This document shows positions 40,192 to 48,753 of a stretch of 64,000 bases of DNA, in pieces (the first letter of the stretch is position 1; each line of letters opens with the position of its first letter). The DNA comes from Candidatus Bathyarchaeota archaeon (GTDB taxonomy: Archaea > Thermoproteota > Bathyarchaeia > Bathyarchaeales > Bathycorpusculaceae), in contig CAVZJV010000001.1 in assembly GCA_963775685.1 (NCBI GenBank), forward strand, positions 44,945 through 108,944, given 5' to 3'. The translations under genes were made by a program, and so were the position numbers. The notes beneath the pieces were generated by a model. That model had not been told where the DNA came from. It was given only the letters and a program-made list of their open reading frames with translations, and made no database searches.

Positions 40192-40794
40192 CCTCTGTTT
40201 AATCCCTATTGAATACTGGCTTTATTTGTTACTATAAAATTGTTAAATAATTTCAGCCGAAAGTTAACGTTCCAAACTATTCGCCTCATCTTTTTCTCGG
40301 TTTTTTGATTACAAAGCTATGTATGATGCGGTACAGGTTAGTACGAATATAAATTCCCAAGGCAATGGGGCTATTTTTTGGGGGCTTTTGTTCTAAAAAT
40401 GGTGCCGATCCTTTGTCTGTTATTGTTGCGGTTCGTAAAGAAGGAAGCCATCTGTAGGTGGTGCAGATTGAACGCCGTTTGGGGGAGAACTGGATAAGGC
40501 TTGGGTAAAGGGGGTATCTAATCATTTGCAGGCTAAAAATGAATTTGTGCTTAGCCAAGAAAAATTGAAAGATTCAGTTAAACGTGGAGTACTTCTAACG
40601 TTACGAGATACATTTGGTAAGAATGCCTTGTCTATTCCAAATAAGTTTACCCAACTTGTTGAAAGCGTTTATAAATAAGTTTTTTCTCCGGACTTAAAAA
40701 AAGACTAACTTGCTTCGTGGGTTTAAGACCGCAGCACAACCACCTCTCCCACGCTTCAAATATTTTAGAAGAAACAAACACTTCTCGCCTAACA

Positions 40795-40845
40795 GAAGTA
40801 GAAGTAGACCAGAAAATATTTCACTGTTCTTCTACTACCCATAAA
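40795..40845 (+). repeat. REP-like palindrome, reference copy
   Basis: GAAGTAGAAGTAGACCAGAAAATATTTCACTGTTCTTCTACTACCCATAAA. Confidence 0.85.
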
Positions 40846-41327: not shown

Positions 41328-41531
41328 ATGCTACGCTATAGAGTTATAATAGAAAAAGATGAAGATGGCATGCTTGTCGCTAAAGTTCCTGACTTGCCTG
41401 GTTGTGCTACCGAGGGAAAAACAAGAGTGGAACTTATGAAAAATGTCAAGGAAGCGATACAGGCGTACATTGAGGCGTTAAAGGAACATGGTGAGCCAGT
41501 TCCTATTGAAACGGTGCAAGTTAGTGTCTAA
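41328..41531 (+). CDS. hicB: HicB antitoxin
   Basis: YRVIIEKDEDG..VPDLPGCATEGKT..NVKEAI. Confidence 0.9.
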   Translation: MLRYRVIIEKDEDGMLVAKVPDLPGCATEGKTRVELMKNVKEAIQAYIEALKEHGEPVPIETVQVSV

Positions 41532-41781
41532 ACTAAAGACGCTTGATTATGATGTTGTATTAAAGGCTCTCGTAAAAATCGGCTATGTTGTTAATAATCA
41601 GAGGGGTAGCCACATCGTTATGCGATTTGTAGACAAACAAAAGTACATTACTTTATTTGGCTGTAGAAATAACGAGGTTATGGTGGTTATCCCTGCCCAT
41701 AAACCTCTGGGAAAAGGTATGTTACGTACCATTATCAGGGAAATTGACCTCTCAGTTGAGGAATTCAACGAGTTTCTTTGA
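41524..41781 (+). CDS. hicA: HicA mRNA interferase toxin
   Basis: QRGSH, VIPAHKPLGKGMLRTIIRE. Confidence 0.88.
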   Translation: MSKLKTLDYDVVLKALVKIGYVVNNQRGSHIVMRFVDKQKYITLFGCRNNEVMVVIPAHKPLGKGMLRTIIREIDLSVEEFNEFL

Positions 41782-41887
41782 AATCTTATTCAATGGAATT
41801 GAATTATGAGGGCTCCTATCGGTTTGGGGTTAAGCGGAGGGAATCTAGTTTGTTTCTGTTAATTAGAATAATCTGGGATTAGACTGA

Positions 41888-41937
41888 AAGTAGAAGTAGA
41901 CCAGAAATTTTTTCACTGTTCTTCTACTACCCATAAA
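41888..41937 (+). repeat. REP-like palindrome copy
   Basis: AAGTAGAAGTAGACCAGAAATTTTTTCACTGTTCTTCTACTACCCATAAA, 2 mismatches to the 40795 copy. Confidence 0.85.
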
Positions 41938-44087: not shown

Positions 44088-44346
44088 CCTTGTCAAATGC
44101 GGACTTACTTTCTTTCCCAGTTTTTTATCCTGGAAAACAAATTCCTTTGATTCAAATCTAAGCGTTTAAGATTGGCTTATGGGCAGCAGTTGCAGTTGTT
44201 GGTGTTGAGCCATTTTTTGTGCCACTTAAAGTGTGCACTCGGAGTAAGAATGTTTTATTGAATTAATTCAATCACTCGGATTGTTGGTATGCCCTAAATT
44301 ATCTTGTGTTACTTTGTGTTATGTGAGGTAATTGGAGGCTGCTTTA

Positions 44347-44583
44347 ATGGTGAAAAATGTTATCGATTTAAACGAAAGGGACAGCCGAGTAATCAACATA
44401 GTTAAGGCAAAGTATGGGCTTAAAGATAAAAGCCAAGCTTTAAGCATAATTATCCAGCATTATGAAAAGTGTGAGCTTGAACCTCAGCTTAGACCCGAGT
44501 TTGTGAAGGAAATAGCGGACACCGTTAAGAGGGGTAAATTTGTCAAGGTTAAGGATTTCGCGGAAGAGTATGGACTAAAGTGA
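44347..44583 (+). CDS. DUF2683-family antitoxin, copy 2
   Basis: near-identical to 34429-34665. Confidence 0.75.
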   Translation: MVKNVIDLNERDSRVINIVKAKYGLKDKSQALSIIIQHYEKCELEPQLRPEFVKEIADTVKRGKFVKVKDFAEEYGLK

Positions 44584-44605
44584 TTGCTTGAATAGTCTTG
44601 AAATC

Positions 44606-44642
44606 GAGGAAGAGGTTTCTAAAACTTTTCACAACCTGCTTC
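44606..44642 (+). repeat. REP-like palindrome variant overlapping a possible RelE start
   Basis: GAGGAAGAGG-tttctAAAACTTTTCACaa-CCTGCTTC. Confidence 0.45.
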
Positions 44643-44667
44643 AGTTAGCTTACCCAAGACCCTCCAT

Positions 44668-45180
44668 TTACATTTTGTCTATTAATTCCATTATCTTAGC
44701 GTAGGTTTCCACATTGCAGCGCCAACCTAAAGAAATCATATCCTTAACAGCCCCTTTAGCTTGCTCTTTTAACAGTAGCCCTTCAAAAACCGCCCGTGCC
44801 AAAATGTAGGGTGTGCCCACATAGCTGATTTTGTATATTTTAGCGGTTTTTCTTGCTACTTCATCATCAATAACCGCCAATCCTTTATGCTCTTTGGCAA
44901 GCGCTAAAACCTCTGCGTCGGCGGCATGAAGCCCCTGTGTCTTGGACAATTGTGAAAGGAACAGTTTGTCTTTGGGTTTGTAAAGTTCAAAAACTCCGTT
45001 TTCGAAGAGTTTTTCTAGCGCAATTGCATCTGGAACTCCTTTTTGTTTGCCTTTATCTACAACTTCAGTTTTCACCAGTAGAGAGGTCAACTTTTTCTCT
45101 TGAAGGTTTTCAATAATTCCGCTTAACCCTACTTTGGATAGATATATTAAAGGGGTGGAATTGAAAACTAACGGTTTCAA
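44668..45180 (-). CDS. DUF3368 PIN-domain toxin
   Basis: VFNSTPLIYL, ADAEVLALA, VIDDEVAR and GTPYIL motifs. Confidence 0.85.
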   Translation of the reverse strand: MKPLVFNSTPLIYLSKVGLSGIIENLQEKKLTSLLVKTEVVDKGKQKGVPDAIALEKLFENGVFELYKPKDKLFLSQLSKTQGLHAADAEVLALAKEHKGLAVIDDEVARKTAKIYKISYVGTPYILARAVFEGLLLKEQAKGAVKDMISLGWRCNVETYAKIMELIDKM

Positions 45181-45497
45181 TTTTGTTCCGCCGCTGATGC
45201 TGATGTAAATTCGTTCTCGACTTCTTCTGGATCAAACCTGACCCATTCAACGTTATGTTGTTTTAATAGATCTGCAAATTCCCAAAGAGAGAGTTTTGCA
45301 ATGTCTGCTGCTTGGGCAAAAGTGACTTTGCCTTTACTTAAGAGTTCTAAGGCGGTTTGCTTTCGCCATTCGGTTATGCCTGTTTGAAGAAGATTTCGGA
45401 CAACTGTTGCTTTATCAAGTTTTTCTTTTTTTATGATTTCAGAAATTTCTTTATCTAATTCAGCTGGGACGCGAACTGCTAATGGTTTGAGTGTCAA
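45177..45497 (-). CDS. UPF0175 family antitoxin
   Basis: AVRVP..KATVVR..GKVTFAQAADIAKLSLWEF. Confidence 0.85.
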   Translation of the reverse strand: MTLKPLAVRVPAELDKEISEIIKKEKLDKATVVRNLLQTGITEWRKQTALELLSKGKVTFAQAADIAKLSLWEFADLLKQHNVEWVRFDPEEVENEFTSASAAEQN

Positions 45498-45546
45498 ACA
45501 CCTGTCACCGTATACAATAGATGCCATTTGCATACATAAGTATTTT

Positions 45547-45560
45547 GCATAAAATTATGC
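45547..45560. promoter_or_regulatory. palindromic operator candidate upstream of the UPF0175-DUF3368 operon
   Basis: GCATAA-AA-TTATGC. Confidence 0.35.
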
Positions 45561-45715
45561 GATAACACGTAATTTTCTCTTTAAACTCTGTCTACATTTT
45601 TTATTAAAAATAGGTGTTAAGAGTAAAGAAGTTGTCTCAAAAAAGCTTAATCACATAGTTTTATCAAAAGTATGTGGTTAGCCACTAAAATAATTTTCAA
45701 AGCCCACTTTTAATT

Positions 45716-45760
45716 GAAAGAAGAAGTAGACCAGAAAATATTTCACTGTTCTTCTACTAC
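45716..45760 (+). repeat. REP-like palindrome copy
   Basis: GAAAGAAGAAGTAGACCAGAAAATATTTCACTGTTCTTCTACTAC. Confidence 0.85.
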
Positions 45761-45868
45761 CTCTATAAGCTTAGAAAATTTGGCTGGTTAAAAGAAGACA
45801 GTAACCCCGTTTGGCAATCGAGCGTACCTGATAGGCTTACATATAGAAAGTCTGTTCATTCAGAACTT

Positions 45869-45919
45869 GAGAACAAACTATAGAAGAAGAACGGAGTGTC
45901 AAGAAAAAATTCACTGTCT
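45869..45919 (+). repeat. REP-like repeat copy (partial)
   Basis: GAGAACAAACTATAGAAGAAGAAC..AAAAAATTCACTGTC. Confidence 0.6.
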
Positions 45920-46134
45920 AAGATGGGTAGTAGTCGTCTGGCAAGCTCTATAGACGACTACTTCTAATGTTTGCCGATGTTGAAAAAGCGTGATTTCCTG
46001 CGGCAAGTATTTTTTCTTCTTTTTTCAACTTTAAGCAAATTTACTATTGGATTCACCAGATAATGGGTAAACGAGATGTAAGGGCTTTTTCTGGATGGAC
46101 CTCCGATAAGCCGTATGATATCGGCGGTACAAAA

Positions 46135-46923
46135 ATGAGTGAAGTAGTCGTTGGGTTGGATGTTCACCTGAAGAATACTCAGGTGACAGTTATGAAGAAT
46201 GACTTAATTGGAGAAATAGTGAAAAAAGAAAGAGTAGGAACTAACAAAGCTGAACTGCAGAAGTCTTTAGCATCCGTTCCTAAAGGCAGTAAGGTAGCTT
46301 TGGAATCGGTTGGTTCCTGTTGGCCATGGATTGATTTTCTAGAAGAGCTTGGATACGAAGTATTGCTTGCTAATCCAGTGAAAGTGAAGCTGCGAGCGGA
46401 AGATATTAAGAATGATAAGGTAGATAGTAGGACGTTGGCTGAATTGGTTAGGGTGAACTGGTTGCCAACATGTTACATACCGCCAGCTGAGCTTCGTTGG
46501 CTGCGTAGTCTATTGCGTCATAGATCTTATCGAACGAGACTTTCTACCAGTGTTAAAAATAGAAGCAAATCTGAGTTTAGAAAGCGAGATATCCAGTTGG
46601 ATGTTAATCTTGGAACTATTAAAGGAAGGAAAGCGGCTGGTATGCTTGATGTTTTTGAGGTTAATCAGAATATTGAACTGCTTGACTTGATTGTAAGACA
46701 AAACAAGGAAGTGGAAAAGCAGCTTTTGAAAAAGTATGGAAAGATCAAGCCTGTTGAGTTATTGACGTCTATTCCCGAGATTGGGGGTCATCTTGCATGT
46801 GTTTATAGGGACGCTTTTAAAAGGAAAGGGAAGGGTGCTGACGCGATTAAGGTTGTTGCGCGTAAGTTAGTAAATGTGGTTTGGGCTGTTTGGATGTATG
46901 AGAAAGAGTTCATGGTAAAGTAG
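46135..46923 (+). pseudogene. IS110 DEDD recombinase lacking most of the C-terminal Tnp domain
   Basis: GLDVH, ALES, LANP and KNDKVD (DEDD) present; SIPEIG is joined directly to GHL..VARKL and the RF..YAGL.P..SG segment is missing. Confidence 0.85.
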
Positions 46924-46924
46924 G

Positions 46925-47050
46925 ACAAACAACAGGGGATGTCTTCTGTCTTCTTCTGCGGTTTGACCGCTTTCGGGTAGAGTGGAGTGTTCCTTTGTTG
47001 TTGGCTGAAGCCGATGTGCGACTTGGTTCGCTGATAGGAGAATGCTGTCT
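46925..47050 (+). ncRNA. predicted bridge/seek RNA of the IS110 element
   Basis: outer stem AACAACAGGGGA/TTCCTTTGTTGTT encloses guides TCTTCTTCT (46949-57) and GTAG (46977-80) around a GCGGT/ACCGC stem; second loop has CGACT (47019-23) and ATAGGAG (47034-40) around a TTCG hairpin. Confidence 0.8.
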
Positions 47051-47154
47051 GAAATACAGGTTTGAGTAAAAGGATTTAAGAAAGAAATGAGGTGAGATGG
47101 TTAGGTAGTCGGGGTCTGTTTAGAGCTGGCCTTCGTCTGGTCTTCTTACATAGG

Positions 47155-47202
47155 AGAAGAAGAAGCGTAATTTTTTCATTCTTCTTCTTTTGACGCTGAT
47201 CT
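47155..47202 (+). repeat. REP-like palindrome copy (IS110 target)
   Basis: AGAAGAAGAAGCGTAATTTTTTCATTCTTCTTCTTTTGACGCTGATCT. Confidence 0.8.
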
Positions 47203-47250
47203 TAATGTGCATAGCTTGCCTTTATAGAAGTTTAGGTGTTCGGTTTACGG

Positions 47251-48753
47251 TTAATTTGTGGTGGTTGTGAAGGTCTTCTTGTCTTTCTTGCATAGTTCAT
47301 GCACAAGGTCTCTTCCCATTAGGCAAACTGTACTGATTCCAAATGTTCCTCCAGCCCATTGTCCAACCATGTAAAAATTCTGCAATCCAGGTAATGTTTT
47401 GCTAACACCCTTCTTATTTATTTCTTTAGCTAGTTCTTTAGGTGGCGGCCAAGGCTGAGCAAATCCACGATAACCGCCCGTCCAATGCTCCACAGAAACC
47501 GGTGTTACAACATCGAAAGCTTCGATTTGTTTTGTGAATCCAGGAAAACGCTTCTCTAATCTCGTAGCAACCATATCCGCTAACTGTTGCTTGTGTTCTC
47601 TGTAATGTTCTTGATTTGCTGATAGTTTTTTCCAATACTCATAGTTCGAGTCAAAATTAATTTTGATAACACATTTGCCAACTGGTGCTAATGATTGATC
47701 AAAGTTTAATATTTCAATGTCGAGTCTATCTTTTTCTTTTTCCTCTACAGTTATTGGTTGGTCCAAAAAGAGCACCATTGCATGGGGTTCGTTCGAAAAA
47801 CTTCTGTTAACTCCATACCAAATCTCAAGCCCAAAAGGTTGAGTCTTGGGACATGAATTGTAGTAAGAGTGGATGAGTTTATTAGAATATTTTTCTTTTA
47901 GCATTCCAAATATTGTTGAATAGCCATCAGCTGCCGAAATTACTAAGTCTGCAAAATGTTCCGATCCATCTTCAAGCACAATTCCTTTCGCTACGTCGTT
48001 TTCAATGATTATCTTCTTTACTTTTGAATTATAGCGTACTTCTCCACCGAGTTCTTTGTAGCGTTTCTCAATGTTGCGTGAAAGAGCTGCTGAACCTCCG
48101 ATTGGCCATCCTGCGTCAGCTATACTTAACATCGAGAGAAAAATTATGGGCACTATTGTAGGTACTTCTTCTATATCGTATTGAATTGTGGAGAATGCTT
48201 TTTTTAGAAATGGATCTGTGAATTTTTGGGCGTATTCTTTTAAATTAATTTTTCCATACTTCATAAAGAAACTCATTAGTGGCAGAATTTTCAGTTTTCC
48301 GCCTACACCGCCAAACATTGCGCCAAATACATCTTGACCGCTGAATTTCCGAATTGCTTTTGTGAATTCTTCGATTAGTCTTGTATCGGCTGGTGAGAGT
48401 TCTTTCATGTGTTTTTCCAGTTTTTCGATATCTGAGTAGACTGTGAAAGCTTTTCCGTTTACGTCTTCAACTTGGACAAATTCATTAAAAGCGTAGGCGT
48501 TGGTTCCTTTTAGTGCTCCAAGTTCTTGCCATATTTTATTGTATAAGGTTCCTGTTGGTTTGGGGGAAACACCAAAGACGTTGTGAACTGCATAATCAAA
48601 ATGGTAATCATTGCGTTTCCATGAAACACAGACGCCGCCGGGTTTGTTTTGCATTTCGCAGATTTGGGTTTTATATCCGTTCATTTGGCTGTAGCAGCCA
48701 GTGGATAAGCCGGCTAAGCCACCGCCTATAATTATTATGGATTTTTCTGCCAT
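47251..48753 (-). CDS. phytoene desaturase-like FAD-dependent oxidoreductase
   Basis: IIGGGLAGL, PGG, GGEVRYNSKV, DVVTP and FYMVGQW motifs. Confidence 0.88.
   Translation of the reverse strand: MAEKSIIIIGGGLAGLSTGCYSQMNGYKTQICEMQNKPGGVCVSWKRNDYHFDYAVHNVFGVSPKPTGTLYNKIWQELGALKGTNAYAFNEFVQVEDVNGKAFTVYSDIEKLEKHMKELSPADTRLIEEFTKAIRKFSGQDVFGAMFGGVGGKLKILPLMSFFMKYGKINLKEYAQKFTDPFLKKAFSTIQYDIEEVPTIVPIIFLSMLSIADAGWPIGGSAALSRNIEKRYKELGGEVRYNSKVKKIIIENDVAKGIVLEDGSEHFADLVISAADGYSTIFGMLKEKYSNKLIHSYYNSCPKTQPFGLEIWYGVNRSFSNEPHAMVLFLDQPITVEEKEKDRLDIEILNFDQSLAPVGKCVIKINFDSNYEYWKKLSANQEHYREHKQQLADMVATRLEKRFPGFTKQIEAFDVVTPVSVEHWTGGYRGFAQPWPPPKELAKEINKKGVSKTLPGLQNFYMVGQWAGGTFGISTVCLMGRDLVHELCKKDKKTFTTTTN

Follow-up and report, generated by a model that had tools for sequence, protein, structure and literature searches.

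RNA-guided recombinases of the IS110/IS1111 group are genome-writing tools in development, and the characterised ones are bacterial. The closest described systems are the IS1111 elements with a seekRNA (ISEc11, ISKpn4, ISPa11 and ISPst6; Siddiquee et al. 2024, PMC11187229) and IS621 with its bridge RNA (Durrant et al. 2024, PMC11208160; structures 8wt6 and others). According to the passages cited here, bridge RNAs are predicted for 93% of the ISfinder IS1111 entries (PMC11208160), and 662 archaeal IS110 recombinases were counted in 10.1101/2024.06.21.599552, with Bathyarchaeia not named in those passages. No paper naming both Bathyarchaeia and IS110 was found; supplementary tables (e.g. Durrant et al. 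Supplementary Table 5) were outside the scope of this search and may already list archaeal IS1111 bridge RNAs. The DNA analysed here is a stretch of 64,000 nucleotides from a Candidatus Bathyarchaeota archaeon (GenBank assembly GCA_963775685.1, contig CAVZJV010000001.1, positions 44,945 to 108,944 of the forward strand), referred to below as the window. Its positions 46069-47156 are very probably the decayed remains of an RNA-guided IS110-family element of the IS1111 type, no longer mobile and from a family that is common in Bathyarchaeia.

The element resembles the IS1111 seekRNA elements in several respects, as far as the cited part of PMC11187229 describes them. Like those, it has a long non-coding region 3' of the transposase gene and subterminal inverted repeats (7 bp here, where the criterion is 7-17 bp), and its family carries the GL-P----SG motif in a transposase of 329-332 aa (criterion 330-350 aa). 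Likewise, of the two RNA segments the one complementary to the top strand comes first (5') and the one for the bottom strand second, and the two matches overlap at the insertion point. Judged from its sequence, the element is of the IS1111 type by its downstream non-coding region, its 7-bp subterminal inverted repeats, the protein length and motif of its homologues, and the order of its guides. A preliminary description, drawn from the window alone, had proposed an archaeal IS110-family element of IS1111 layout with a bridge/seek RNA predicted downstream of the transposase gene. Homologues, a covariance model and the guides all agree with this part of it. The strings it named are also all present, namely AG at 45932-33 and 47155-56, TCTTCTTCT at 46949-57, GTAG at 46977-80, CGACT at 47019-23 and ATAGGAG at 47034-40.

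A protein search returned 382 relatives; the close ones have 329-332 aa and carry both PF01548 and PF02371. Homologue DNA was taken from three sources: same-genus genomes, species-representative genomes (20 loci, mostly Bathyarchaeia with a few labelled Hadarchaeota, Hadesarchaea or Aenigmatarchaeota) and metagenome contigs (75 loci). Left and right ends were both identifiable in 24 elements, and 20 of these are non-redundant including the window copy, i.e. 19 homologues. All 19 start AG-ACGGGATGTAAAGG and end CTTACATAGG-AG. Their consensus is flank-AG-ACGG(G/A)ATGTAAAG ... CTT(A/T)CAT(A/G)(G/A)(G/A)-AG-flank, with unrelated flanks and an element length of 1276-1303 bp. The homologue left end AG-ACGGGATG aligns with window positions 46069-46079, and the left side of the window copy aligns as ATGGGT-AA-ACGAGATGTAAGGG at 46063-46084. 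When the window's ends are compared with homologue loci by BLAST, similarity begins on the left only at about 46062-46071 and stops on the right at about 47154-47160 in most loci. The element ends are at 46069/46071 and 47156, which puts the left boundary 137 bp to the right of the 45932 given in the preliminary description.

Genome G087 contains an empty homologous site. A stretch like window 46015-46063 (94% identity) passes there via AG into AAGAAGAG and a hairpin, so that the site reads ...CACCAGTTAACTGAT-AG-AAGAAGAG... and is colinear with the joined window flanks (46015-46068 plus 47155 onward). The preliminary description had named the empty site ATGGGTAGTAGAAGAAGAAG beforehand as a refutation test, and the site in G087 differs from it. 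Coverage of the stretch by soil-metagenome contigs begins only at 46086, and one of these contigs has the canonical left end behind a different flank. The contigs of four soil-metagenome runs represent relatives' sequences only, and none spans the whole stretch or bridges an empty site; the joints seen in them fall within the transposase gene and have low likeness. The parts of the window copy are given below, with LE for left end, RE for right end and 5'UTR for the 5' untranslated region.

46069..46070, + strand: left core dinucleotide, a degenerate AA; AG in 19/19 homologues and in the G087 empty site.
46071..46134, + strand: LE, 64 nt, starting ACGAGATGTAAGGG where the consensus has ACGGGATGTAAAGG.
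46076-82, + strand: subterminal inverted repeat ATGTAAG in the LE, kept in homologues.
46100-08 / 46119-27, + strand: 5'UTR hairpin CCTCCGATA / TATCGGCGG in the LE, covering the Shine-Dalgarno sequence.
46135..46923, + strand: transposase gene remnant, 262 aa, with the DEDD/RuvC domain only (PF01548 match; alignment with homologues).
46925..47057, + strand: predicted bridge/seek RNA core with target-binding and donor-binding loops; 145.2 bits with covariance model R1.
46949..46957, + strand: 5' target guide UCUUCUUCU, complementary to the top strand AG-AAGAAGA at 47155-63 (7 nt plus core).
46975..46980, + strand: 3' target guide GGGUAG, same sense as GGGT-AA at 46065-70 (5/6 match, core G mutated).
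47006..47017, + strand: 5' strand of the donor loop, UGAAGCCGAUGU, at the place expected for a left-end guide; not complementary to the LE terminus.
47034..47040, + strand: 3' donor guide AUAGGAG, same sense as the right-end terminus plus core at 47150-56, exact.
47058..47154, + strand: remainder of the RE, with a conserved ATTTAAG...GAGGTG block.
47145-51, + strand: subterminal inverted repeat CTTACAT in the RE, kept in homologues.
47155..47156, + strand: right core dinucleotide AG, from the alignment of homologue ends.

The two subterminal repeats pair over 7 bp and lie 5 and 3 nt from the element ends. The LE is short (64 nt), whereas the non-coding RE downstream of the gene is long (231 nt, 46924-47154).

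By its conserved pairing and guide strings, the predicted 3' non-coding RNA at 46925-47057 is a bridge/seek RNA. The covariance model matches 3' of 67 homologous transposase genes, including relatives at only 55-60% protein identity, and the window RNA ranks sixth of the 67 by score. Of 101 genus genomes sampled, 9 have a match to the model. RNAalifold on 20 right ends gives an outer stem, a short inner stem CUUC/GGAG and an apical hairpin GCGG/CCGC enclosing an internal loop, followed by a second domain with a closing stem GGC/GCU and an apical hairpin GCGA/UCGC. Both loops are built alike, with a closing stem, a 5' strand of about 12 nt, an apical hairpin, a 3' strand ending in AG, 3 nt and the closing stem again. 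The long stem AACAACAGGGGA / TTCCTTTGTTGTT and the internal loop of the preliminary description are real, and the stem appears in minimum-energy folds. Pairing occupies 92.7% of cells in the model alignment, compared with 37.8-58.7% when partners are slid by 1-3 columns, in an alignment of mutually related sequences that was fitted to the covariance model and is biased toward the structure. Compensatory changes on both sides occur in 19 of 27 pairs, and 0 of 500 shuffles reach the observed values on any of five measures. One helix (CC with GG) is unsupported at 63.6% paired. Since it uses the GG of AUAGGAG, a guide fits better than a stem at this place.

Three of the strands in the two loops change together with the DNA at the element's ends. 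For this comparison right ends were placed by the donor 7-mer and left ends by the ACGGGATG motif, allowing up to 2 mismatches. A target guide counted as matching when it covered 5 or more consecutive flank nt beyond the core, and the left-flank count used 37 of 67 non-redundant rows, the most distant members with loosely located left ends being left out. The 5' target guide is complementary to the right flank in 35/57 elements, compared with 91/3162 non-self control pairs (2.9%). For the 3' target guide, identity with the left flank is seen in 29/37 elements, compared with 19/1312 control pairs (1.4%). Joint changes of flank and guide are exemplified by AG-AACAACAAC with UUGUUGUUCU (L054), AG-TCAAAGTC with CUUUGACU (L061) and AG-ATAAATGG with CAUUUAUCU (L078). 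The comparison upholds the earlier assignment of UCUUCUUCU as guide for the AG-AAGAAGA flank. The second target guide had been read as GUAG against 45930-33, and is instead GGGUAG against GGGT-A(A) at 46065-70. The string TCTTCTTCT at 46949-57 occurs 150 times on both strands of the 3.06 Mb genome, which is rare enough for its match to carry weight. Some 5' target guides match 5-7 flank nt and have a G or an extra base in place of CU, the expected complement of the AG core (L022, L062, L066, L070, L076, L090, L100, L035, L041 and L065).

In the donor loop only the guide for the right end is legible. In 55/61 elements the 3' 7-mer of this loop recurs without mismatch in the right end of the same element, compared with 19/2678 non-self control pairs, as the preliminary description had supposed for AUAGGAG. 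Eight donor variants each match their own right end (ATAGGAG, ATAAGAG, ATAGAAG, ATACGAG, AGAAGAG, ATAAAAG, ATGATAG and ACAGAAG). No left-end guide was found among the four candidates tested. CGACU, the left donor guide of the preliminary description, forms the 5' side of the stem in the conserved apical hairpin GCGA/UCGC, whose last pair is AU (39 sequences) or GC (26). CUGUCU, 3' of the donor loop, becomes GUCC in L038, L057 and L078 with the LE unchanged. UCGUCU in the RE varies while the LE is constant. CCGU against ACGG has one supporting change (LE ATGG with CCAU in L036 and L041) and one contradicting clade (LE ACGGC with CCAU).

The 5' strand of the donor loop has a different likeness. 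The motif AAGCC(G/A)U.. is common, in the same sense, to this strand (47006-47017) and to the loop of the 5'UTR hairpin (46109-46118), and it is also shared in 47 homologues. The longest common string of the two loops has a mean of 7.2 nt within an element versus 6.0 nt between elements, and a string of at least 9 nt is present in 15/47 self pairs versus 126/2044 non-self pairs. On sequence likeness, AAGCC(G/A)U may be a protein-binding mimic or part of an unusual donor recognition. The motif is one option for the left end and, if this is true, would tie the recognition of the donor to control of recombinase translation. A broader proposal sees the Bathyarchaeia lineage as an archaeal branch of its own among the bridge recombinases. 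Its RNA would pair with both target flanks and the right end, i.e. three DNA arms out of four; the left end would be recognised otherwise, and the landing pads would be the archaeal counterpart of bacterial repetitive extragenic palindromes (REP) and bacterial interspersed mosaic elements (BIME). This proposal is tentative and, on balance, unlikely.

The window copy has a damaged transposase gene. The single open reading frame (ORF; 46063/46135-46923) encodes a protein matching PF01548 (E 4.3e-17, 62.8 bits, cut-off 29), and the Transposase_20 domain PF02371 with its conserved serine was not found in this protein by Pfam search. Alignment with 23 homologues places an in-frame deletion of 70 aa near 46787, which removes the core of Transposase_20 and the GLVP..QSG serine motif. 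The deleted residues include YAGLVPRVxQSGEH, the serine motif of the family, which in the homologues corresponds to the GL-P----S(t)G motif of the IS1111 subgroup. Homologues P0002-P0078 carry PF02371, and one relative is named Bathyarchaeota IS110 transposase. The profile NF033542 ('IS110 family RNA-guided transposase') scores 101.7 bits with the window copy, below its cut-off of 140, and 197.9 with the intact P0002. Residues 141-269 of P0002 also give a weak match to NF052498, a TIGR-Tas RNA-guided endonuclease (35.9 bits, below the cut-off of 100). Since the window protein lacks PF02371, the locus is a remnant of an IS110 member and not a working member.

The LE of the window copy is degraded as well. 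Besides the AA core it has two further changes within its first 14 nt, and its Shine-Dalgarno sequence is changed from GGAGG to GGCGG. With a broken transposase and a mutated left core, the element cannot move. The element is present only once in the genome (3.06 Mb, 96.9% complete), where PF01548 and the RNA model each match a single time and no second IS110 transposase exists. The window copy is a dead fossil whose one remaining role is to mark a hairpin-repeat landing site. RNA-bearing 3' ends do persist after decay of the transposase gene, as in G029 (loci L046, L050 and L051). This genome has 8 RNA-model matches, at least four of them directly beside short C-terminal transposase remnants.

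An intact member of the family would have about 1290 bp, with a DEDD/serine recombinase of 331 aa and a bridge/seek RNA of two internal loops just 3' of the stop codon. The RNA would be expressed from this region, and the 3' strand of the donor loop would read the right-end terminus and core, much as the target loop reads its flanks. By analogy with IS621 and ISEc11, the element probably leaves as a circle joined via one AG, and the circle would then recombine with a DNA site read by both target guides; the chemistry of recombination is likewise modelled on those systems. The window copy entered GGGT-AG-AAGAAGA at the foot of a hairpin in a mosaic intergenic repeat. Afterwards 70 recombinase codons were lost, and its left core and Shine-Dalgarno sequence mutated, leaving only the RNA gene and the right end intact.

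Several observations weigh against an RNA-guided element with this mechanism. Fewer than 5 nt are matched in 22/57 elements for the 5' target guide and in 8/37 for the 3' guide, and since the homologues are mutually related, the counts overstate the number of independent events. The left flank of the window copy itself matches the 3' target guide over only 4 nt beyond the core. Between the 5' strand of the donor loop and the left end (its first 95 nt), the longest antisense match averages 4.6 nt, and because this strand is not complementary to the left-end terminus AG-ACGGG, half of donor recognition is unexplained. Folding of the single sequence is not significant, with z = 0.13 over 246 nt and z = -1.85 over the 133-nt core; therefore, the RNA structure rests on covariation. 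Rfam 15, scanned over 45500-47600 with E <= 10, yields nothing above chance level. The sequencing runs that match the stretch are eight soil-metagenome DNA runs from two studies (shares 0.07-0.14), and none of the listed runs is recorded as RNA.

Other explanations have to be compared with an RNA-guided, decayed IS1111 copy at 46069-47156. The preliminary description had an element at 45932-47156 with a left-end hairpin AG-TCGTCTGG..., a junction read by CGACU and an interrupted copy of the TTCTTCTACTACCCAT repeat. In its favour, the joint 45933/47157 does recreate the repeat arm over 16/16 nt, CGACU is the complement of AGTCG at 45932-36, and the 8-mer GCCGATGT of the donor loop 5' strand is also present at 45972-79. 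However, no homologue shares 45932-46061 and 19/19 left ends align to 46069, while window 45881-46030, which spans 45932, is one uninterrupted repeat unit in G023 (91% identity) and G001. The G087 empty site joins ...CACCAG.TAA.....AG directly to AAGAAGA, and the covariation of the CGAC strand with its stem partner speaks against a role as donor guide. An element at 45932-47156 is almost certainly a wrong reading, and the donor junction CAGACGA-CT-CCTAT is wrong. The resident palindromic repeat is not the unit that was interrupted; a neighbouring hairpin module likewise starts with ATGGGTAGTAG, hence the 16/16 restoration of the TTCTTCTACTACCCAT arm. This arm occurs in the repeats at 40827 and 41919 (exact) and 45749 (2 mismatches), and only 3 intact copies of the repeat are present in the genome, all in the window.

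With the ends at 46069 and 47156, the copy could still be non-autonomous yet mobile, moved by a recombinase in trans, since its RNA and right end are intact. The high rank of its RNA, a right end equal to the consensus and the persistence of RNA-bearing remnants in G029 would suit such a role. It is nevertheless very unlikely in a 96.9%-complete genome with only one PF01548 match, one RNA match and a single element copy, whose left core is AA rather than AG and is followed by two more changes in the first 14 nt. The 3' structure could also be a mere transcript-end or regulatory structure of the transposase mRNA, with the likeness to the flanks arising from a target preference set by the protein. 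The structure does lie directly 3' of the stop codon with no separate promoter shown, and the donor loop 5' strand resembles the 5'UTR hairpin loop and not any DNA end. Against this, the loops change together with both flanks and the right end over many targets while the stems are kept, and reading by two strands was experimentally shown for ISEc11, ISKpn4, ISPa11 and IS621 in the cited portions of PMC11187229 and PMC11208160. A pure mRNA structure is thus highly improbable, and a guide RNA in a dead IS1111 copy is the preferred explanation.

The insertion site of the window copy is at the foot of a hairpin, and the following two features concern it.

47155..47188, no strand: target hairpin with arms AGAAGAAGAA (47155-64) and its complement (47179-88); insertion at the 5' foot.
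45881..46030, no strand: mosaic intergenic repeat unit, not part of the element; hairpin GTAGTAGTCGTCT / AGACGACTACTTC; multi-copy in genus genomes and contiguous across 45932.

The hairpin at 47155-47188 supports the earlier claim of an insertion at the foot of a hairpin repeat, akin to REP targeting. The interrupted site GGGT-AG-AAGAAGA is close to the repeat arm; the pattern GGGTAGAAGAAGA matches 40828-40 and 41920-32 with one mismatch and, at up to 2 mismatches, has 11 occurrences in the window versus 1.45 expected. Among the family, the right flank begins an inverted repeat of at least 7 nt exactly at the core in 8/54 elements, compared with 56/2680 random positions. The elements at a hairpin foot include the window copy, L004, L022, L032 and L038. 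Since only 8/54 are placed in this way, the hairpin foot is a trait of the window's sub-clade and not of the whole family.

The modules around the insertion recur in other orders in G001, G023 and G087. Short intergenic modules of this kind are present in many copies and varied order in genus genomes: a 50-bp GAAGTAGAAGTAGACC...TTCTTCTACTACCCAT hairpin, the GTAGTAGTCGTCT/AGACGACTACTTC unit and a TTCAACTTTAAGC.AATTTACTATTGG block. In the window they lie at 40790-40842, 41882-41934, 45712-45764, 45881-46030 and 46015-46063, and they are also found in L129, L130, L134, L138 and L139. Module-rich regions are G001:C1 151-172 kb and G023:C10 291-320 kb. The mosaic is reminiscent of bacterial REP/BIME clusters. 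An integron with attC sites was considered and rejected: all 19 PF00589 matches of the genome are on other contigs with none on C1, and the repeats have no attC core.

The neighbouring genes have no link to the element. Pfam matches in ten neighbouring ORFs are HicA, UPF0175 with DUF3368, DUF2683 and an ArsR-type helix-turn-helix, i.e. small toxin-antitoxin-like or regulator cassettes. Such small cassettes stand between repeats at window 41488-41781 and 44332-45533 and comprise a HicA-like toxin ORF, DUF2683 and a UPF0175 plus DUF3368 pair. Within the RE, at 47071-47100 (AAAGGATTTAAGAAAGAAATGAGGTGAG), an A/T box is kept about 60-85 nt from the RE tip (ATTTAAG, with variants ATATAAG and ATATATG) and is followed by an invariant GAGGTG. 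By appearance it looks like an archaeal TATA-type box with a Shine-Dalgarno-like motif. The RNA model also gives weak matches upstream of transposases at 35-37% identity, in L045:1835-1936 (+) with 40.5 bits (a Hadesarchaea record) and in L011:1351-1469 (+) with 22 bits (G001). These hint at possible relatives with the RNA at the opposite end.

Archaeal IS110 recombinases are already known, and the worth of this locus is the family it points to and the question of left-end recognition, not the dead copy. It leads to a large, consistent archaeal family of 67 RNA-bearing loci whose target rules are legible from sequence, and the new covariance model covers an RNA that has no Rfam 15 match on this stretch. 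Intact members (P0002; the elements in L004, L053 and L054) are candidates for programmable recombination in archaea. The closest annotated relatives on plasmids are at most 33% identical and carry the generic label 'IS110 family transposase'. Distant matches are found to the ISCro4 and IS621 transposase structures, the IS621 protein at an E of about 3e-9.

The family differs from the IS1111 seekRNA elements in its targets, in its core (AG on the transposase strand) and in its archaeal hosts, which are Bathyarchaeia plus relatives that bear the labels Hadarchaeota and Aenigmatarchaeota. While PMC11187229 stresses flank recognition in the part cited, the RNA here clearly has a second, donor loop that carries a guide for the right end. 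As with ISPpu9 and the IS1111-attC group, which target REP or attC, short structured intergenic repeats serve as safe landing sites; unlike in those groups, the sites are archaeal mosaic modules and only 8/54 members are at a hairpin foot.

The comparison with IS621 follows the cited portions of PMC11208160. The RNA is in the right end here, whereas that of IS621 is in the left end upstream of the gene. The order of the guide strands is reversed, and the second target guide has 6-9 nt instead of 4 nt. Two departures may be of wider relevance, namely the non-complementary or bulged core position in several target guides and the lack of a readable left-end donor guide among the elements compared. 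The two systems are alike in having two internal loops of two strands each and a donor more conserved than the target. Both also use the foot of a palindromic intergenic repeat, which for IS621 is ATCAGGCCTAC in REP.

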